From contig JBBTTA010000001.1 of assembly GCA_038064475.1 (NCBI GenBank), forward strand, positions 187,795 through 251,794: 64,000 bases of DNA. The letters are read 5' to 3'. The notes beneath the pieces are model-generated. The model was not told the DNA's origin. It saw only the letters and a list, made by a program, of their open reading frames with translations, and made no database searches. Below, piece by piece: positions 5,341-64,000 of this stretch (within the stretch, counting starts at the first letter, position 1; each line of letters begins with the position of its first letter). Source of the stretch: Patescibacteria group bacterium. GTDB lineage: Bacteria; Patescibacteriota; Minisyncoccia; Phycocordibacterales; EsbW-18. The translations under genes and the position numbers were made by a program.

Positions 5341-6381
5341 TTAGGCTGCGTCCTCAGGGGTCATATCACCCGTGTATGCCGCCAAGCTGTCGATAATGCT
5401 AGGGTTTAGAAGAGTTTCTTTGAGCTTCTCGGTATTTCCACGACGTAAAAGTCCAAGGTATGACTGTGTCGTTCTAAAAGAAAACTCCTTTTCAAGTCGT
5501 CTCGACATCCTCCTTTTTGTCGTTGTCCTCAATACTCGGTGGTCAGGAAAATGTACCCATCCTAAGAAATCGACACCAGACGCAAGTGTTTTAATAAACA
5601 CTTTGTCAGGATGAGGTGCGAGTTTGAGTCGCTCTTCAAGAAAATCAGCAATTCTTGGAATCAACTCAGTAAGATAGTCTTTGTCATGAGATAGGACGAC
5701 AAAATCATCAGCGTACCGAATATAGTATTTTGCTTTGACTATGTGTTTCATCCACTGGTCGAATTCATTCATATAGATATTCACGAAAAGTTGTGAGGTG
5801 AGATTGCCTAGCGGCAGACCGACGCCGAGTCGCCCCACATAAAAACTTCCAGTAATCTCTTTGAGAAGCCCGAGTAACTCTCTGTCAAAAATATGTTTCT
5901 CTAGTATCTGTATCAGAATTTGGTGATCGACAGAAGCAAAGAACTTCCTGATGTCACACTTAAGAATCCAACATGTCCGAGTGTTATTTTTGCTCACTCT
6001 GTATCCAAATTGTTTGAATCGTTCAATTGCTTTATGTGTCCCCTTATTGAGACGACATGAATAGGAGTCCGCTATAAAACGTTTGTCGAAATAAAGATAC
6101 AGCTTTCTATAAATAGCATGGTGGAGAAGACGATCTTGGACAGTCGCCTTATGTATATTTCTTGGCTTTGGATCCGAAATGTTAAAAGCATCATAGCCTC
6201 CGTGACAATAGGTTCGTTGAGCAAGGTCGTGGTGGAGTTTCAATATGTTATCCATGAGTTTCCATTGAAAATCTTGCACGTCATTTTTTGACCGCTTCCC
6301 TTTTAAGAATTCGCGCCATGCGCCGAGAAGATTTTCGACGGAAATGATATCCTTGTAGTTATGAATGAAATTAAAAACCAT
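5341..6381 (-). CDS. DGR reverse transcriptase, Brt-like.
   Basis: The motifs are SVENLLGAWREF (cf. Brt TWENLLDAYRK), CRLNKGTHKAIERF (cf. YACRPDKGTHAGV), LKCDIRKFFASVDH, GLPLGNLTSQLFVNIY (the DGR-specific [I/L]GxxxSQ motif), RYADDFVV (the YxDD catalytic box) and GVDFLGWV. The last 15 aa derive from the duplicated prfA segment. Confidence 0.9.
   Translation of the reverse strand: MVFNFIHNYKDIISVENLLGAWREFLKGKRSKNDVQDFQWKLMDNILKLHHDLAQRTYCHGGYDAFNISDPKPRNIHKATVQDRLLHHAIYRKLYLYFDKRFIADSYSCRLNKGTHKAIERFKQFGYRVSKNNTRTCWILKCDIRKFFASVDHQILIQILEKHIFDRELLGLLKEITGSFYVGRLGVGLPLGNLTSQLFVNIYMNEFDQWMKHIVKAKYYIRYADDFVVLSHDKDYLTELIPRIADFLEERLKLAPHPDKVFIKTLASGVDFLGWVHFPDHRVLRTTTKRRMSRRLEKEFSFRTTQSYLGLLRRGNTEKLKETLLNPSIIDSLAAYTGDMTPEDAA
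5355..5399. repeat. Left direct repeat of the DGR insertion. It is a copy of the prfA 3' coding end that is read in frame as the RT C-terminus.
   Basis: CAGGGGTCATATCACCCGTGTATGCCGCCAAGCTGTCGATAATGC versus 8122-8166 differs at 1 position. It encodes IIDSLAAYTGDMTP in both ORFs. Confidence 0.8.
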
Positions 6382-56177: not shown

Positions 56178-57473
56178 TCATAGACGTTCAAAAAGTTTTT
56201 TCATGTCGAGAGCGATTACCGACCAATCGTAGCGCTCTTTTACCATTGCGCGCGCATTCGCAATAATGCGAAGACGAAGCGCCTTGTCTTGCATGTATCG
56301 CTCGACATTCTGCGCAATGCTTTGTGGGTCTTGTACTTTACAAAACAATCCTGTTGGGGTTACTTTGCCCATTGGTGTTGCAGGATCGATCAAAAAGTCA
56401 GGGATACCACCAATACGTGTGCCAATTGTAGGAATGCCTGCCGCCATCGCTTCGATAAAACTATTTCCCATACCTTCTGAACGTGAAGGACGTACAAACA
56501 CATTCGAAACGTAGAGATACATCGGCAATGTTGCATGTGGAACATACCCTGTAAAACGAACTCGTTTTGAAACTCCAGCTGCATGCGCAACATTCCACAG
56601 TGTCTCACCGAGAGGTCCTTCGCCTACGACAATGAGTTTAACGCGATCAGGAAGATACTTGAGTGAGCGAATGATGTCGTCGATGCCATTCTTTGGAACG
56701 AGACGTGATGTGGTAATGAGAAAGAAGTCGTCGTCATTTTTTTGAAGTTTTTTTGCAAGTGTTTCGCCCTTCTGCATCCATCGTGGATCAGCAAAATGCT
56801 CGTAATCAACACCATTCGGAATAACTGAAACAGCACCGCGATACCCCATATGTTTTGCGAATTCTCCTAAGTACACTGAAATTGCTTGCACATGTCGCGC
56901 CTCCGTAAAAATGCGTTTCAAAAGAGGCGCGACGAGACGGATGCGAAAACGTTTGGTGATGTGATCAACCGTATCGCCATCTTGCAGTGTCAAAAGAAAT
57001 GGTGTCGTATCGCGTGCAAACATACGCAATAACACAGCAGGAAATCCCATGTTCGTCATGAGCGACCAATAAAGGTCGTAGGTGTGTTCGCGCGAAAGTA
57101 TGCGCGCTTTTTTATACGCCCACCATACATATGCAACTTTTATGAGGTGCCACGGAAATTTTGAAAGTTCTGTGAGCGGGAGTGCTTTTTTTGCACGTCC
57201 AACACGATGAATCGTAATATTTCCTACCTTTTCTGTTTCAGGAAGATCCGTATCCACTCGAAGCGTAATCATGTCAAAAGCAACCGACGATGAGTCAATT
57301 CGATCGGTTATTTCCTTCACAGCCACTTCGGCACCCCCCACAAAAGGTTGGTACATAAGGGAGAAAATGAGTACCCGCTTCTTCTGCTTCCCCGGCATAC
57401 TGGCATCATAGCACGCTCTACGTTTCTTTTGGTGTTGTGTCGATAATCGTAAAATCTTCTGCACGAAGCTCAC
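56178..57473 (-). CDS. Glycosyltransferase family 4.
   Basis: ..EGMGNSFIEAMAAGIPTIGTRIGGIPDFL.. is the GT4 motif. Confidence 0.65.
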   Translation of the reverse strand: MSFVQKILRLSTQHQKKRRACYDASMPGKQKKRVLIFSLMYQPFVGGAEVAVKEITDRIDSSSVAFDMITLRVDTDLPETEKVGNITIHRVGRAKKALPLTELSKFPWHLIKVAYVWWAYKKARILSREHTYDLYWSLMTNMGFPAVLLRMFARDTTPFLLTLQDGDTVDHITKRFRIRLVAPLLKRIFTEARHVQAISVYLGEFAKHMGYRGAVSVIPNGVDYEHFADPRWMQKGETLAKKLQKNDDDFFLITTSRLVPKNGIDDIIRSLKYLPDRVKLIVVGEGPLGETLWNVAHAAGVSKRVRFTGYVPHATLPMYLYVSNVFVRPSRSEGMGNSFIEAMAAGIPTIGTRIGGIPDFLIDPATPMGKVTPTGLFCKVQDPQSIAQNVERYMQDKALRLRIIANARAMVKERYDWSVIALDMKKLFERL

Positions 57474-58872
57474 CTACATTCATTTTTGGTGTCGCGAGCA
57501 TTCGTGAAGATACAACATACAGAACACCAAGTCCCGCGACAATACAAAGTGTAAAAAAGAGAAGTTGACCAAGTGGTTGTTCGCGCTGTGTGCTTTCACG
57601 AACACTTGCGACAACAGAAGACGCAGTTACTATGCTTACCTTTTCTTCTTCACTAGTTGTTGCTTCCTTTTTCTCTTCCTGTTGTACCTCATCGGGCATA
57701 AATGCTGTTTCCAAAATTGGTGAAAGTGTAATCGGTGTCATCTCAACAACATCAGTCCCCACAACAACATTCTCATATTCAGTTACACGACGTTCATTGG
57801 GATACAAAAGAGATACTTCATCCCCTTCTTCTGGTCGCAGACCTGTGGTGTACGCAGAAAACTTAACGGGAACATCTGAAATAAGAAATGTATTCTCCGG
57901 AAACGTAAATGTGCGGTCCATTCCTGATCGCCGACGATATTCCACATATATTTTCCAATCCGAAATATCAAGTTGGCTTCCTGTCGTATTAAGAAGCTCA
58001 ATAAACCCCTCTTCTCCCCATACCACGTGTGAAATAACAATGTCCGCCGACACGACAGTTACCATACGCTCATCTTTTGATTTCTGATTGTTTGAAGAAA
58101 TAGAAAACACAGCAACATACATACCTGGTTCACGATATGCATGTGTCACGTCTTTACCAGATTTCGTATCCCCATCACCAAATGTCCATGTGTAATGCAC
58201 CCCGCTTAACGATTCATTCTTATCGTTCACTGCATAGCCCTCGAACGTAACATGTGCCCCTGCGGGGACGGTTACGTCATCCCCAGCATATGCAAAGACA
58301 ACTTGTTTGTATCCTCCTGTTATCTTTGGTTTTGAAGTAGTCCCGCCTGTTGAACCAGTTCCTCCACTACCCGTATCTTGTACACTGTTTTCTGCCTTTG
58401 GCGTTGGTGTACCCGTAATCCACGACGCATCTGTTTGCCGTTGCGCTGTATGCTTCGTCGTATTATTGCCACCAAGCGACCAATTGCTTCCCCCCACTGC
58501 TGTATCAATCACTGTGTGTGTCGAATCATACAGGGTTAGTATCTCGCCTGTATTTCCGAGTGTTCCTGAATATATAAGGTCGGCAGAAACATCCGGCGCG
58601 CTTTCATCATCCGTTCTCTCAAGAATATAGAAAGTTCCAGCAGCAATTGTTCCTGAAAGGGTGACAGAGGGATCACCGTCTAGAGCAATGAGTGTCCATC
58701 CTAAAAGATCGACACTCTCTACACCATTGTTGTAGAGCTCAATCCACTCATCACTCGCAGACACCGTCGTTCCCATCCATGCAATTTCATTAATGACGAT
58801 ATTTGCATGCACCAAGTGTGGCGAGAGAAAAAATACTGCAAACAAAAATATATACTGCGGAACATATTTCAT
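57418..58872 (-). CDS. Surface protein with two lamin-tail domains, a PKD domain and a C-terminal TM anchor. The start is at Met41 of the ORF.
   Basis: The signal peptide is MKYVPQYIFLFAVFFLSPHLVHA. The first lamin-tail domain shows INEIAWMGT..SASDEWIELYN and the second shows VVWGEEGFIELLNTTGSQ. The PKD-like segment is VHYTWTFGDGDTKSGKDVTHAY. The C-terminal helix is LLFFTLCIVAGLGVLYVV. Confidence 0.6.
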   Translation of the reverse strand: MKYVPQYIFLFAVFFLSPHLVHANIVINEIAWMGTTVSASDEWIELYNNGVESVDLLGWTLIALDGDPSVTLSGTIAAGTFYILERTDDESAPDVSADLIYSGTLGNTGEILTLYDSTHTVIDTAVGGSNWSLGGNNTTKHTAQRQTDASWITGTPTPKAENSVQDTGSGGTGSTGGTTSKPKITGGYKQVVFAYAGDDVTVPAGAHVTFEGYAVNDKNESLSGVHYTWTFGDGDTKSGKDVTHAYREPGMYVAVFSISSNNQKSKDERMVTVVSADIVISHVVWGEEGFIELLNTTGSQLDISDWKIYVEYRRRSGMDRTFTFPENTFLISDVPVKFSAYTTGLRPEEGDEVSLLYPNERRVTEYENVVVGTDVVEMTPITLSPILETAFMPDEVQQEEKKEATTSEEEKVSIVTASSVVASVRESTQREQPLGQLLFFTLCIVAGLGVLYVVSSRMLATPKMNVGELRAEDFTIIDTTPKET

Positions 58873-58913
58873 GCGATGAGTGTACACATGTGTGCTCAAG
58901 AAAAAGTAAAAAA

Positions 58914-58947
58914 CACGGCTCGACAAAATGTCGAGCCGTGTTTTTTT
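58914..58947. terminator. Bidirectional intrinsic terminator (CACGGCTCGAC-AAAAT-GTCGAGCCGTG then T7) downstream of the coupling-protein gene.
   Basis: The 11-bp stem is perfect. A-runs and T-runs flank it on both strands. Confidence 0.65.
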
Positions 58948-59017
58948 GGGGTCAGACCCCACCTTTCGATCTGTTTCCTTCCACCTTCCCAACTTTTTAA
59001 CTTAAAAACTTCCTAAC

Positions 59018-61180
59018 TTATTTACCCTCGCGTTCAAATAGCTTCTTCAAAACGTGTTCAGGAACTTCTTTTTGCCTGTCCTCTAATTTTCCGTGTGTAG
59101 TCTGTGGGGTCTGACCCCCTTCGGTGGGGTCAGACCCCACTTTTGTCGGCTTTGGTTCGTGTCGTTTTTCTTGAACAGGTTTTGATTCTTCTCGCTTCTG
59201 TTCTTTTGGTTGAATATTCTGTGTAGCCGCTTGTACTCCTGCATCACCCAGCACGGCCGCAAGCGCATCACGGAGTTCAGCAACGTGCTGTGGTGTTGGT
59301 CCTTTTGCACGCCTCTGTTCTTCACGATTTTCTTGACGCAATTTATCCAGTGACATTGCCTTCCGCACTTCTGCTTCGCGATCTTCTGCTTTTTTCTGTG
59401 GCGCTCGTTCCGCTTCGAAACGCCTCTGCCCGCCACTCATACCACCTCTATTTTCCGCACCCTCAGGACGTCTCTCGGAACGCTCAGGCCGTCGTTCTCC
59501 CCCACCTTGTCGTGGTGCTCCCCCCTCGCGACGTGGCACCTCACTACGACCTCCTCCCCCGCCTTCTCGTTCTCCTTCTCGTTTTTGACCAAATGATTTC
59601 TTGTGCCACTGAATAATGTCCTCCTCAATCGCCTGTCGTGGGCGTGCAAATTGCTCTTGTGAACGCCCAATCGCAACATCACGATATGACACCGTTGGAA
59701 GTTCAATTGGGGGTAACGTACGAGCAGAAAATGGAGATGAGGCAATATCATCAATCATCAATTTTAAATACACCTGATACTTATCAAGGTTTACGAGATC
59801 CTCTGCAGTAAACACCGGCGCAAATTCTTTCTCCAAATATTCTGCATCCGTTGCTCCCACGCGGAACGTCAGCATGGTTCCGACGTTACCAAACACAGCC
59901 GCACGCACTTCGTCAGACATTTGTTCAATGTACTGGTGCGCCATTGTGAGGTTCAGTTTGTATTTGCGCGCTTCAGAAAGAATGTTTGCAAATGATTCGT
60001 TCGCAAATGACTGGAATTCATCCACGTAGAGATAAAAGTTTGGAAGTTTATTGAGTTCTTTTTCCGTGAGATCTGCGCGTGACATCGCCGCAAGATAAAT
60101 TTTTGTGATAAGCATTGAACCAAGAAGACTCGCGCTGTCTTCACCTATTTGTCCTTTTGAGAGGTTGATGATGATAATCTTTTTCTGATCCATCATCTCG
60201 CGGATATTAAATGTGGACTTTGCCTGCCCGATGATATTTCGAATAACAGGGTTTGCAGTAAATTGTCCAACCTTGTTTTGAATTGCCGGTGTTGCTTCCT
60301 GCGCAAAACGTTCAGTATAGTTTGCAAATTCATCTTCCCAGAATGACTTCACGCCTGGATCTGTCACATGTGACACTACAAGTTTTCGATATTCTTTATC
60401 CGCAAGCATGCGATTGATACCGAGAAGTGTTGAGCCTGGATATTCAAGCAACGCCAAAATCGTGTTGTTCAAAATGTACTCCATGCGCGCCGACCACGCA
60501 TCAACCCAAATCTTTTTGAATGCTGACATAAGACCCGCAGCAACAAGGTGGCGCTTATCCGGTCCAATATCTTCCATCACGTTGAATGCGACCGGATGCT
60601 CGAGGTCAAATGGCGCAAAATAAAGCACATCATTCAAACGGTGCTCAGGAATGTAATTCAAAAGAAGGTCGGCAGTCTTTCCGTGCGGATCGATGAAGGC
60701 AAACCCTTCCCCATTCTGAATATCCTGCACCGCCATATTTTCGAGCAACACTGACTTACCGACACCAGTCTTACCGATGACGTAGATATGTCGCGTACGG
60801 TCTTTTGCTTTGATGCCAAACTTCACCCGCTTGTTGCGGTGGTCTGTTTCTCCTATGTACGTAACACGAGCGGGATTGTACGGTTCTTGAGGAGCCATTG
60901 CTGTAGACAGTATACGACTGAGTTGGTAAAAAGAAAACCGCCCAGCTCCAGTTTCGTAAAAACTGGGGCTGGGCGGTACTACTGGCATCCGACGCCGGCG
61001 TCGGATGCCCTTGAGAGCGAACACTACCCAGAAAAGAAAGACTGTCAGGAGCACTTGCGGAGTGTGCCTCCCGCTCACCACGACACACCCGAGACTTGCA
61101 AGGGTTGCTGTAACAAACGGAATGAAGAGTCCCCCTGTTCCGGACAAGACGAGAGCGAGTGGAAAAAGAAATCGCTTCAT
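59018..61180 (-). CDS. VirD4/TraD-like type IV coupling-protein ATPase. It has two N-terminal TM helices and a long Arg/Glu-rich disordered C-terminal tail.
   Basis: Walker A is YVIGKTGVGKS and Walker B is FYLYVDEFQSF. ..NLTMAHQYIEQM.. is also present. The N-terminal TM helices are LFPLALVLSGTGGLFIPFVTATLASLGCVVV and VLLTVFLFWVVFALKG. The C-terminal about 200 aa are low-complexity R/E/G-rich. Confidence 0.6.
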   Translation of the reverse strand: MKRFLFPLALVLSGTGGLFIPFVTATLASLGCVVVSGRHTPQVLLTVFLFWVVFALKGIRRRRRMPVVPPSPSFYETGAGRFSFYQLSRILSTAMAPQEPYNPARVTYIGETDHRNKRVKFGIKAKDRTRHIYVIGKTGVGKSVLLENMAVQDIQNGEGFAFIDPHGKTADLLLNYIPEHRLNDVLYFAPFDLEHPVAFNVMEDIGPDKRHLVAAGLMSAFKKIWVDAWSARMEYILNNTILALLEYPGSTLLGINRMLADKEYRKLVVSHVTDPGVKSFWEDEFANYTERFAQEATPAIQNKVGQFTANPVIRNIIGQAKSTFNIREMMDQKKIIIINLSKGQIGEDSASLLGSMLITKIYLAAMSRADLTEKELNKLPNFYLYVDEFQSFANESFANILSEARKYKLNLTMAHQYIEQMSDEVRAAVFGNVGTMLTFRVGATDAEYLEKEFAPVFTAEDLVNLDKYQVYLKLMIDDIASSPFSARTLPPIELPTVSYRDVAIGRSQEQFARPRQAIEEDIIQWHKKSFGQKREGEREGGGGGRSEVPRREGGAPRQGGGERRPERSERRPEGAENRGGMSGGQRRFEAERAPQKKAEDREAEVRKAMSLDKLRQENREEQRRAKGPTPQHVAELRDALAAVLGDAGVQAATQNIQPKEQKREESKPVQEKRHEPKPTKVGSDPTEGGQTPQTTHGKLEDRQKEVPEHVLKKLFEREGK

Positions 61181-61425
61181 GTGGTTCTCTCACGGAAACC
61201 AAAGGTGTTGGTTTTGACCGTTCCGACCATCTCCCACCCTGCGTTGTTGCATGCTTCTTCGACTCTGATGACAACTTGGTACTTCACCTCATACGAAATT
61301 GTCTTCGGAAACTCGAAAGATGCATGCCCATGGAGAATGAGTGCGGGGGTGATGGTTTCAAGAATGTGGTCCGTAAGCCACTGATAATTGTTTCGAAGCT
61401 CTTTTGCTCCCTCAAAAGTAACCAT
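61177..61425 (-). CDS. Small hypothetical protein of about 82 aa, translationally coupled (TGATG) to the upstream ORF and overlapping the coupling ATPase start.
   Basis: The peptide is MVTFEGAKELRNNYQWLTDHILETITPALILHGHASFEFPKTISYEVKYQVVIRVEEACNNAGWEMVGTVKTNTFGFRERTT. No family was recognised. Confidence 0.4.
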   Translation of the reverse strand: MVTFEGAKELRNNYQWLTDHILETITPALILHGHASFEFPKTISYEVKYQVVIRVEEACNNAGWEMVGTVKTNTFGFRERTT

Positions 61426-61649
61426 CAGCCGGCCGCCCTTTCCGTGGGATGCTCGTTGTACCGACTCCAGAAACAGTGCTTGCACTCGTCAGGGTCGTCC
61501 ATCATTGGCTCTCCGCAATTCAAACAAGGCGGGTAGTCTTGTGGGTCTTGAGACAATGGAACTCTGGGTTCCTGCCCCTCCAACAACTCCTTGAACCACG
61601 CCATCGCATCTCCTCTTATGGTTAGATAGCGTCGTACAGCTTGCGACAA
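61425..61649 (-). CDS. Small zinc-ribbon-like protein of 74 aa.
   Basis: CLNCGEP...CKHC is a C4 ribbon-like motif. The gene lies in the operon with the coupling ATPase. Confidence 0.4.
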   Translation of the reverse strand: MSQAVRRYLTIRGDAMAWFKELLEGQEPRVPLSQDPQDYPPCLNCGEPMMDDPDECKHCFWSRYNEHPTERAAG

Positions 61650-62104
61650 TGAAGTCGTATGCGACGACGCTCTTTCACACTCACGAACGTCGAGCGTCGT
61701 AATCTGCGCTCTGATTCACTCTTGTTTTCGACAGTACGAAGAAAGAGATTTGGAAAGTTCGGTCGTGATTCAAGAATAAAACGGAACTTGCCATGAAGCC
61801 AGTACTCCGTCTTTTTGAATTTATTCGTCAACATCCTATGAATTCGTTCTGATTCAGGGAGGCTACCTAGAGAAGCCTCGAGAAGTCTTGCCTGCATTTT
61901 AAGCATGGCTTCTGCATCAGAAGCATCCCGGTTCATCAATACACGTTCTTTGAACCTGTCGATCGCATGCTGTGATACAAGAGCCTCCCGTCCATCGGGA
62001 AGCAACATAATGAAACGGATTACAGTCACCCCATTCTCCTTTCTCTGAACAGTTAAAGAGCCTGTGTCTGCCAAGACACTATCAAAAAAATCGTATAAGA
62101 ACAA
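61622..62104 (-). CDS. Hypothetical protein of 160 aa.
   Basis: The ORF is upstream of and overlapping the zinc-ribbon gene. No family was recognised. Confidence 0.35.
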   Translation of the reverse strand: MFLYDFFDSVLADTGSLTVQRKENGVTVIRFIMLLPDGREALVSQHAIDRFKERVLMNRDASDAEAMLKMQARLLEASLGSLPESERIHRMLTNKFKKTEYWLHGKFRFILESRPNFPNLFLRTVENKSESERRLRRSTFVSVKERRRIRLHCRKLYDAI

Positions 62105-62210
62105 GGAGATTAGTTTTCATCTGTTTCACTCGTCGAAGGAGTTACCGAGGCTTCAGTCAATAATGCCGCTTCTGTGTAGGTATTGCCCGCGTCCCCCTCC
62201 TTCGCCAAGG

Positions 62211-63536
62211 CTACGGCAGGGCAGGCACAGTGCCCAATTCATCAGGGTGTAAAGCAGCTTCTGTATACGTATTTCCTGCATCCCACAAAGCCCACGAGTT
62301 TAAACCGGCATCGTATGTTGCGGTGATCTGTGCGCGAACCATGTCGGCTGTGTACGTCGCGCCGAGATTAAAATCTTGAAGCCATGGACGAAGTTGAAGT
62401 GCGTTGATATTACCGTGACCTTTTTCTGCCTGTTCACGAAGCGCAATCATGTCGGTTGATGTAGATGTTGAGTCTTTTGCGGCCGCAAGGATGTTCGCGC
62501 GTCGAACTGCTGCATCCATTGAGTATTTCACGACTGCATACGGATCGGTAGCTGGCTTTGCAATACCAATAAAGCCTGCGTTGTAGTGCGAGGGATACAC
62601 CATCGGCATGACGAAATTAAAGTATGGAAGCGCACGTTCAATGACCTGCCCAATACCAAGATCATCAGTGTTTGTTGTGGTGTAGCCAAAGAGATCAACA
62701 GAGAGTGCCGGCACATCGTCAACTTCGTCCCATGGTTCTGATAATTCATCGTAGAGATATGCAAAAAAACTTTCAAGTACATCTGCTTTTGGCTTTCCTT
62801 CAGAAAGCGTAAAGGCAATATCTTTCATGTTGCCGTCTGATGGATAGCGTACGTAGTCATAGTTCAACTCATCAAAACCAATCTCAAATGACTCTTTTGA
62901 AACTTCAACAATGTATTTCCAGAAATCACGCGCACCGACATCAATAAATGAAAGCCCTTTGTGATCCTTCCATACCGTGCCATCGCTCGCTTTCTTTACC
63001 GCGAGCTCTGGGTGCACCGACGAGTAGAACGGGTCTTGGAACACCGTGATGCGACCGATGATGTAGATATCTTTGTCGTGGAGCCGCTGTACGAAATCTT
63101 TCATGTCGTGTGCCCCGCACGCATCAGACACCGACGGAGCAACTGCAGGGTTGCCCGTCGGGAATGCGACCTTGCCCGTGTAGTCTTTGATGTCGATGAC
63201 CACAGCGTTGAGTTCGGTCTCGTCAATGAGCGCAACAAGTTCGTCACGGAATGATGGTGTGCCCACAACACACTGGGTCATGTAGATCGCCTTCACGACA
63301 TCAGGAGTTTTTATATGTGGCACTGTATCTTTCTTTGGGGGCAACAGTGCCTCAAGAATATTTGTCGTTGTTGCTGTGCCACCCCGTTCATACGTGCGAG
63401 AAAAAAGTCGCGGAGCACCGAACATAAAGAAAAGAAAACACAACACAAAGAAACCGAGCCCCACTGCGGAAAGATGGCCTTGTTTTTTTGGCTTTTGATT
63501 TTGTGCCTTTTGTTTTTGTTCGAGATTCGGAGGCAT
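62211..63536 (-). CDS. Membrane-anchored putative glycoside-hydrolase-like TIM-barrel protein (DUF4015-like).
   Basis: It has an N-terminal TM helix (HLSAVGLGFFVLCFLFFMFGAP). An Asp/Glu-rich catalytic-like core is ..NYDYVRYPSDGN.. and ..VYPSHYNAGF... The assignment is tentative. Confidence 0.35.
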   Translation of the reverse strand: MPPNLEQKQKAQNQKPKKQGHLSAVGLGFFVLCFLFFMFGAPRLFSRTYERGGTATTTNILEALLPPKKDTVPHIKTPDVVKAIYMTQCVVGTPSFRDELVALIDETELNAVVIDIKDYTGKVAFPTGNPAVAPSVSDACGAHDMKDFVQRLHDKDIYIIGRITVFQDPFYSSVHPELAVKKASDGTVWKDHKGLSFIDVGARDFWKYIVEVSKESFEIGFDELNYDYVRYPSDGNMKDIAFTLSEGKPKADVLESFFAYLYDELSEPWDEVDDVPALSVDLFGYTTTNTDDLGIGQVIERALPYFNFVMPMVYPSHYNAGFIGIAKPATDPYAVVKYSMDAAVRRANILAAAKDSTSTSTDMIALREQAEKGHGNINALQLRPWLQDFNLGATYTADMVRAQITATYDAGLNSWALWDAGNTYTEAALHPDELGTVPALP

Positions 63537-63854
63537 ACTACATCGTTTGTTTATTATGCACAGACACTAAAAGAATAATGAGTGCGCCTGCGATTGCCGC
63601 AATCCAACCTTTCCATGCGTACGGCACGGCAATAAAAGGCATGAGACAGAGCAGGACGCCAATAGCAATAAGCATTTTGTGGTATATATTCATACGCCAA
63701 CTAGTATACCCAGCACATAACTTTTGCGCCAGAAAAAGTTATGTGGCTTCGGTATACCCGTCTTAGCCTCTAGGAAAAAAATGGAAAAGGGTGTAGCTTA
63801 GATACAGGAAGTTCTTCACGGCAGGAGGGTAACCTCCGGAAAGGAGAAGTGGGT

Positions 63855-64000
63855 ATGCAGCCACGAGGACCGACGAGAGGGGCTGTCAAAAAGCGCGGCT
63901 TCATCGACGGCCGGCAGCGCGGCAGGAAAGCAATCATCAGGTTCAGCTCGCCTTCCGGCTCGCAACGCAGTGGATTTGTCCGCTGTCGGCAGCGCGGAGT
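63855..64000 (+). CDS. 5' end of an Arg-rich, high-GC ORF (MQPRGPTRGAVKKRGFIDGRQRGRK...) that runs off the window.
   Basis: A strong SD (ggaaaggagaagtgggtATG) precedes it. Local GC is above 60%, unlike the surrounding DNA. Confidence 0.3.
   Translation, partial: MQPRGPTRGAVKKRGFIDGRQRGRKAIIRFSSPSGSQRSGFVRCRQRG

Follow-up and report, generated by a model that had tools for sequence, protein, structure and literature searches.

A soluble VirD4/TrwB-like ATPase gene in a patescibacterial genome, its read-through upstream frame and its variable small neighbours

The stretch of DNA analysed here (hereafter the window) comprises 64,000 nucleotides of a Patescibacteria group bacterium (assembly GCA_038064475.1, contig JBBTTA010000001.1, positions 187,795 to 251,794). 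Its minus strand bears, at positions 59018-61180, an open reading frame (ORF) of 720 aa encoding a P-loop ATPase, with a Walker A motif (GKTGVGKS) at residues 136-143 and a Walker B motif (YVDEFQ) at residues 385-390. Upstream of it, on the same strand, lie three small ORFs (p82, a zinc-ribbon ORF and p160, counting away from the ATPase) and a gene specifying a DUF4015 protein; downstream lies a gene for a surface protein with lamin-tail (LTD) and PKD domains (Table 1). A preliminary description of the locus had recognised the ORF, both its motifs and the neighbouring lamin-tail/PKD protein, all of which are present as described, the latter being recognised by Pfam through both its domains. 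It had also read the ATPase and the three small ORFs as a single operon for a VirD4/TraD-like coupling protein, anchored by two N-terminal transmembrane (TM) helices, and its partners. The results below support the kinship with VirD4-type proteins. They also show that the conserved gene encodes a soluble protein of 626 aa whose start is M95 of the ORF, and that the TM helices correspond to a small gene that is separate in relatives.

The evidence for the shorter gene came from the comparison of the 720-aa ORF with its homologues. All the hydrophobic windows of the N-terminal part of the ORF are confined to residues 4-61. Residues 1-94 could be aligned to nothing, and a position at about M95 was the start in 18 of 18 aligned homologues; the protein of identical sequence held at NCBI is 626 aa long. 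A TM or otherwise hydrophobic segment ahead of the conserved core (YIGETD motif) was found in none of 108 homologues, and in most of 82 related loci the frame is open for no more than 40 codons 5′ of that core. In the three closest relatives, found at loci L083, L085 and L002 (ATPases 88%, 73% and 71% identical to the window copy, respectively), the 2-TM peptide is specified by a gene of its own, with its own stop codon, and is 71, 74 or 79 aa long. These separate peptides occupy the same place in the gene row and show 33-37% identity to residues 1-66 of the window ORF. Given the starts at M95, the absence of TM segments and the separate 2-TM genes of the relatives, the conserved gene is the one that starts at position 60898 and runs to 59018. 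The 720-aa ORF is a composite, in which codons 1 to ~66 are a 2-TM gene, codons ~67-94 an intergenic-like, hairpin-bearing region that is open in frame, and codons 95-720 the real gene. The two TM helices ascribed to the ATPase, and with them the coupling-protein layout with a membrane domain, thus arise from read-through of a separate small gene. This read-through is not an assembly error, since two other, independent assemblies (L088 and L089) have the same junction between the 2-TM part and the ATPase.

Table 1. Features of the locus, ordered by position in the window (ORF residues are those of the 720-aa frame)
Feature	Position	Strand	Basis or remarks
Surface protein with LTD and PKD domains, signal peptide and C-terminal TM anchor	57418..58872	-	Pfam; hydrophobic N- and C-termini
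Intrinsic-terminator-like hairpin, 18 bp followed by a T-run	58908..58946	-	Right behind the ATPase stop codon
Conserved ATPase gene, 626 aa from M95 of the 720-aa ORF	59018..60898	-	VirD4/TrwB-like, soluble, P-loop
Disordered E/R/G-rich C-terminal tail, ORF residues 531-720	59021..59590	-	Composition; low pLDDT
Walker B	60011-60028	-	ATPase gene
Walker A	60752-60775	-	ATPase gene
First 94 codons of the 720-aa ORF	60899..61180	-	2-TM gene (~65-70 codons) plus a stretch that is intergenic in relatives
Linker peptide between the 2-TM part and the ATPase, MPVVPPSPSFYETGAGR			Within the 720-aa ORF
Two strong hairpins within the 28 linker codons	60937..61009	-	Terminator- or attenuator-like
p82, 82-aa ORF	61177..61425	-	Coupled by TGATG to the zinc-ribbon ORF upstream and by ATGA to the 2-TM ORF downstream
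Zinc-ribbon ORF, 74 aa from TTG	61425..61649	-	CxxC-x10-CxxC
p160, 160-aa ORF, probably 128 aa from M33 (62008)	61622..62104	-	Motifs HAxxRFxER and YWxxGxWRFV; rare small family
DUF4015 protein, putative glycoside hydrolase, one N-terminal TM anchor	62211..63536	-	Pfam PF13200, E 3e-84
51-aa 2-TM ORF, immediately 5′ of the DUF4015 gene	63538..63693	-	Conserved small membrane-protein family

Three Pfam families matched the ATPase above their cut-offs, namely T4SS-DNA_transf (PF02534; 34.8 bits, cut-off 20.1), TrwB_AAD_bind (PF10412; 32.9 bits, cut-off 20.5) and TraG-D_C (PF12696; 23.5 bits, cut-off 22), while the DUF87/HerA model scored just under its cut-off. The NCBIfam models for TraD/VirD4 proteins stayed well below theirs (TIGR03743, 53 vs 366; TIGR03754, 41 vs 648; NF045973, 38 vs 250). 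A search of the PDB with the family profile returned TrwB alone, and only around the P-loop; identity to solved structures is only 10-15%. Both Walker motifs are invariant in 48 homologues. In the AlphaFold model, an all-helical insert occupies model residues 116-237, between core strands, and the PF10412 alignment spans that region. This insert may be the counterpart of the all-alpha domain of coupling proteins; VirB4 and DptH structures score equally well against the model. Neither the FtsK/SpoIIIE type of motor domain, with its gamma domain and membrane linker, nor the HerA pattern of an above-threshold central domain accompanied by NurA or another partner gene was found for the ATPase. The FtsK Walker-A motif did not occur in the ORFs of the related loci either, a result that is uninformative. 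The profile comparison with FtsK and HerA that the preliminary description had proposed comes out in favour of its VirD4/TraD-like assignment. By its Pfam matches and its fold, the ATPase is a soluble P-loop protein that falls in the FtsK-HerA superfamily, on the VirD4/TrwB/VirB4 branch. It is without two defining features of type IV coupling proteins (T4CPs), namely the TM domain and the linkage to DNA-transfer (Dtr) or mating-pair-formation (Mpf) genes; its best name is T4CP-like ATPase, and not bona fide coupling protein.

The long disordered R/E-rich tail mentioned in the preliminary description was borne out. Residues E, R and G account for 16, 14 and 13% of the last 190 residues, which were mostly modelled by AlphaFold with low confidence, with short helices at three motifs: DRExExRKAxSLxxL, KGPTPExxxxLRxALAAVL and the terminal EVPExVLxKLFE. 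These motifs are kept across 19 and 48 homologues; the remainder of the tail is not. In TraD and DotL, a long C-terminal tail is used as a docking region and, by analogy with these tails, the three motifs would fit what is expected of docking peptides. The terminal motif also bears a loose likeness to the FtsZ C-terminal peptide, on which no conclusion is based here.

The ATPase family is widespread. At least 8000 homologous protein clusters were matched, all the named hits among the 120 listed being from Patescibacteria, and two peptide patterns matched at least 584 GTDB species; FKKIWVDAWSARMEY and HQYIEQM are the marker motifs of the subfamily. Homologues are 55-88% identical to the window copy. 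The best 80 loci come from Patescibacteria or from metagenome bins, and the three that were looked up belong to the GTDB class Paceibacteria. The ATPase gene is chromosomal, and seemingly vertically inherited, across Paceibacteria-type Patescibacteria. As the preliminary description had indicated, no other gene of a type IV secretion system (T4SS) was seen close by. The Pfam scan, which covered the 26 larger ORFs of the window, detected no T4SS family beside the ATPase, no prepilin motif was present in any of the six frames of the window, and the 10 kb past the window end, a region whose inspection had been proposed, contain no VirB4, relaxase or pilin gene. Neither relaxase genes nor VirB4 or other Mpf genes were found within 10 kb on each side in the 80 related loci.

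We consider it likely that the gene encodes a soluble VirD4/TrwB-like ring ATPase that docks through its tail peptides and probably works for a chromosomal T4SS or in a role that derives from one, and that the small ORFs are bystanders and the TM segments a product of read-through. Such a protein would form an NTP-driven ring, as its structural relatives do, and its partners would be docked by the three short conserved motifs of the otherwise disordered tail. It would most likely recruit substrate for, or energise, a FATA-type T4SS whose genes lie at another place on the chromosome of these organisms; alternatively, its function may have split off from the T4SS role. Several points weigh against this proposal. 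The functional step, the partnership with a T4SS, is one that we infer, and the family is devoid of the membrane domain of canonical coupling proteins. Its members retain ~60% identity between class-level lineages, which is unusually much for a protein of the conjugation type. Three assemblies bear out the in-frame read-through in the DNA of this organism, so a TM-anchored product of 720 aa may be made as well and could even function. Finally, according to a recent survey of Patescibacteria genomes, T4CP homologues are more widespread than VirB4 (2,918 vs 2,417 genomes), and the homologue present in Ca. Southlakia epibionticum is non-essential while the T4SS genes are essential (Quiñonero-Coronel et al. 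2025, Microb Genom, PMC12102498).

A different role, unlikely in our judgement yet the strongest of the alternatives, is suggested by the chromosomal neighbourhood. In this case the DUF4015 protein (extracytoplasmic and glycoside-hydrolase-like), the soluble ATPase and the LTD/PKD protein would form an exapted, envelope-associated housekeeping unit, with small TM proteins as tethers, that acts independently of the T4SS, for instance in the uptake of DNA or another polymer or in assembling the envelope. Among the 63 loci having at least 3 kb of upstream sequence, 45 contain a DUF4015 gene upstream of the ATPase gene on the same strand; in 17 of these it is directly adjacent (within 250 nt), sometimes at only 8-10 nt. 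The interval between the two genes is variable, being empty or holding small ORFs, MurD or, in three loci, type IV pilin-like genes (GFTLIELLVVIAIIGIL...; L060:9330-9791, L063:3303-3800 and L071:6121-6558), which would suit an envelope function. On the downstream side, an LTD/PKD protein is the immediate neighbour in ~20 related loci, the gap often being 0-40 nt, and GT4 glycosyltransferases lie downstream in 54 loci; Mur ligases and alanine racemase are also found around the ATPase. The very high sequence conservation of the ATPase and its natural in-frame fusion to a 2-TM peptide in this organism point in the same direction, and exaptation of orphan T4CP homologues is kept as a possibility, with their function left open, in the 2025 survey (PMC12102498). 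However, gene order is conserved over the whole region throughout the class, and the adjacency may be a matter of general synteny without functional meaning; in this lineage the ATPase gene is flanked on both sides by terminator-like hairpins; and the LTD neighbour is present in just ~20 of 83 loci. The more specific proposal that these genes constitute, in Paceibacteria, an exapted, T4SS-independent and near-essential envelope module, in which 2-TM peptides act as tethers and the tail peptides as docking sites, is more doubtful still. If it were true, the in-frame fusion of TM segments and ATPase would be a 'Rosetta stone' for the membrane tether; the module could serve to take up DNA or polymers, or to assemble the cell envelope.

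The proposal of the preliminary description, by which a single operon would specify a coupling ATPase anchored in the membrane together with three small proteins dedicated to it, as an undescribed DNA-translocation or transport system, appears improbable. In its favour, all the genes are on the same strand; stop and start codons overlap between the zinc-ribbon ORF, p82 and the 2-TM ORF (the TGATG coupling of the first two was read in the sequence as stated); three assemblies have the 2-TM ORF in one frame with the ATPase; and in the nearest clade the order of a small ORF and then a 2-TM ORF is seen repeatedly 5′ of the ATPase gene. That pair is, however, the only one that recurs, and it does so in the nearest clade alone. 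When the small ORFs were compared by phmmer with all the ORFs of the 82 related loci, no homologues were detected, and searches against Pfam, NCBIfam, PADLOC and PHROGs yielded nothing useful. Among 5.8 billion proteins, p160 and p82 (the latter being hypothetical protein AAB458_01285 at NCBI) matched only themselves. When 1.84 billion representatives were scanned in full with HMMER, four weak relatives of p160 came out, and a relative of this protein sits at another locus that has no adjacent T4CP-like ATPase gene. The contrast with the flanking genes is clear when the window is compared with L083: identity is 88% for the ATPase, 76% for the DUF4015 protein and 65% for the LTD protein, but only 36% for the 2-TM peptide; just the CxxC region of the zinc ribbon aligns, and nothing of p82 or p160 does. 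Thus, even in a relative with an 88%-identical ATPase, the small ORFs do not exceed ~36% identity. L083, L085 and L002 contain ORFs of 78-97 aa at the position of p82, with no significant similarity to it, and L083 has a 73-aa CxxC...CxxC ORF at the position of the zinc ribbon. In ~17-20 lineages the DUF4015 gene abuts the ATPase gene with no small ORFs in between. The small ORFs, and the 2-TM peptide with them, are fast-evolving, lineage-specific accessory genes located between the DUF4015 and ATPase genes, and not dedicated subunits. To speak of an undescribed system was an overstatement, since a 2025 survey (PMC12102498) had already described orphan T4CP homologues in Patescibacteria.

Transcription signals also bear on the single-operon proposal. 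One of the hairpins in the linker codons has an 18-bp stem (60937-60977) followed by UUUUCUUUUU, which would give a U-run; the other is a perfect 26-nt palindrome at 60984-61009, formed by GGCATCCGACGCC and GGCGTCGGATGCC, that codes for an RRRRR stretch. The fold energy of the linker is -56.6 kcal/mol (z -6.6; inverted repeats I2 and I4), and in L083 and L085 comparable hairpins with U-runs are present in spacers that are truly intergenic. A terminator-like structure thus lies between the small ORFs and the start of the ATPase gene, here and in relatives. As terminator-like hairpins are found both 5′ of the ATPase start and after its stop codon, the one-operon reading is weak for this lineage. 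A TATACT box, shared by L083 and L085, is present 15-21 nt 5′ of the ATPase ATG; this may be a -10 element, which would yield a very short leader. A near-palindromic 13-mer, GGGGTCTGACCCC, occurs in three copies within positions 58948-59140 (0.01 expected) and nowhere else in the 64 kb. Two of the copies make up a 15-bp inverted pair at 59104-59140, within the coding region of the ATPase tail, and the third is in the spacer, directly ahead of the terminator. This repeat could be a protein-binding site or a small inserted repeat. An Rfam scan of positions 58700-64000 gave only chance-level matches.

All three small ORFs exist in the sequence, but two of them probably start further downstream than had been assumed. 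In the case of p160, NCBI calls the gene from M33 and the remote relatives align only from about residue 31. The zinc-ribbon ORF is more likely 59 aa than 74 aa long, starting at an ATG at 61604 that lies behind a GAGGAG Shine-Dalgarno sequence; it is uncalled in L088 and L089. The fold predicted for p160 resembles that of RelE/ParE toxins, which, like the position of its relative away from any adjacent T4CP-like ATPase gene, speaks against a role as partner of the ATPase. The likeness to these toxins concerns the predicted fold; there is no sequence-profile match to them and no recognised antitoxin. The 59-aa zinc-ribbon ORF follows p160 by 18 nt and has a strong Shine-Dalgarno sequence, a layout loosely like that of the toxin-first MqsR/MqsA pair. 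Together, p160 and the zinc ribbon may be a new toxin-antitoxin-like pair.

That the ATPase gene is what remains of a conjugative element, as the preliminary description had considered, or of another mobile element, or else codes for an ATPase of phages or defence systems (packaging, DptH or MADS), is highly improbable. Relatives do occur on plasmids and in Bacillus phages, and the matches to phrog_5156 (E 2e-59) and to PADLOC mad8 (E 4e-16) agree with such an origin. However, the gene is near-universal, vertically conserved and chromosomal; it was found in at least 584 species and has conserved neighbours on the chromosome. Neither the window nor its flank contains an integrase, relaxase, dnd, MADS or phage gene, and the GC content of the gene (0.47-0.48) is inside the range of the window. 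A conjugative remnant was rejected on the distribution and neighbourhood of the gene.

Some other features of the region deserve mention. The ORF of the LTD/PKD protein spans positions 57418-58992, its likely start being MKYVPQ at 58872. The 51-aa 2-TM ORF next to the DUF4015 gene carries the motif LxPFxxxPxxWK (LxPFLGFPxxWK) and matches a group of small ORFs designated cluster 6, which lies just 5′ of DUF4015 in 24 of the 28 cluster loci; it is called as 45 aa in L088 and L089. Further upstream of the DUF4015 gene and this small 2-TM gene there is usually a TP_methylase (rsmI-like) gene. The 10 kb past the window end, as given by L088, specify a TP_methylase (rsmI-like), a Mur ligase, an alanine racemase, a TIMP-like protein and hypothetical proteins. 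The TIMP-like protein (184 aa; L088:3493-4047, ~6 kb past the window end) matches the Pfam family of tissue inhibitors of metalloproteinase, TIMP, with 26.5 bits against a cut-off of 23.1, which is unusual in a bacterium. Twenty other large ORFs of the window specify housekeeping or cell-envelope functions: SecA, RF, GatB, GAPDH, FBA, Obg, MurB, Wzy/TPR, glycosyltransferases, SLT and a reverse transcriptase. The reverse-transcriptase gene (RVT_1) is located at 5341-6381, on the minus strand. At L083:4724-6102, three called genes 5′ of DUF4015 and adjoining the TP_methylase gene, there is a bAvd and RVT_1 pair, as in diversity-generating retroelements.

Patescibacteria represent a large share of bacterial diversity, and T4SS are essential in the sole cultivated model. 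A T4CP-like ATPase that is more widespread in them than VirB4, lacks a membrane anchor and retains ~60% identity between class-level lineages probably has an important role. Although the window adds little new about the ATPase family as such, the analysis provides a corrected 626-aa gene model, evidence that the small ORFs are not conserved partners, a conserved neighbourhood composed of DUF4015, ATPase and LTD/GT4 genes, and three tail motifs that can be used in searches for partners.

Among known systems, the best profile match of all was phrog_5156 (E 2.4e-59), which covers the whole ATPase core with 24-27% identity. Members of this family, found in large Bacillus phages (phage G gp156, CP-51, D6E ORF23), are ~750-825 aa long and have an extra N-terminal half of ~390 residues, in place of which the patescibacterial ATPase has its long tail; in phage G (L091), the phrog_5156 member adjoins a gene annotated as VirB-like. 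The nearest relative outside Patescibacteria is a stand-alone ATPase of 395 aa (40% identity) on a Sulfitobacter plasmid (NZ_CP081110.1; L086), a non-mobilizable plasmid on which it adjoins a recombinase and transposases. Longer relatives of 700-825 aa are present on a Bradyrhizobium plasmid (L087) and in the large Bacillus phages. Compared with the C-terminal domains of VirB4 (4ag5) and of DptH/DndH (7es4), the ATPase has neither the N-terminal domain of VirB4 nor a VirB4 Pfam match; in the case of DptH/DndH, there are no dnd or dpt genes near the ATPase, and sequence profiles prefer the VirD4/TrwB families. With canonical T4CPs (TrwB of R388, VirD4, TraD, DotL and Cagbeta) it shares a P-loop domain, in which the helical insert may be a counterpart of theirs, and a long C-terminal tail, but it differs from them in lacking both an N-terminal TM domain and neighbouring relaxase or Mpf genes.

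The closest counterparts are the orphan T4CP homologues of the same phylum reported by Quiñonero-Coronel et al. (2025, Microb Genom, PMC12102498). In that article, 5,713 VirD4-type T4CP homologues were found in 2,918 of the 3,035 Patescibacteria genomes, and just 148 of these homologues lie close to virB4; VirB4 itself was present in 2,417 genomes, and the relaxases found numbered only 109. A similar kind of Pfam/HMM signature, the distance from virB4 and the absence of a nearby relaxase are common to those homologues and to the ATPase studied here, and the dataset includes several Paceibacteria genomes that carry this ATPase family. In the supplementary tables, each of the two Paceibacteria genomes checked has 2-3 dispersed T4CP hits, and one of the two has the ATPase family. 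In the available text, the soluble, tail-bearing subfamily is not set apart, and the missing TM domain, the tail motifs and the DUF4015/LTD context were not found there. The ATPase is a typical member of the orphan T4CP homologues already reported in 2025.

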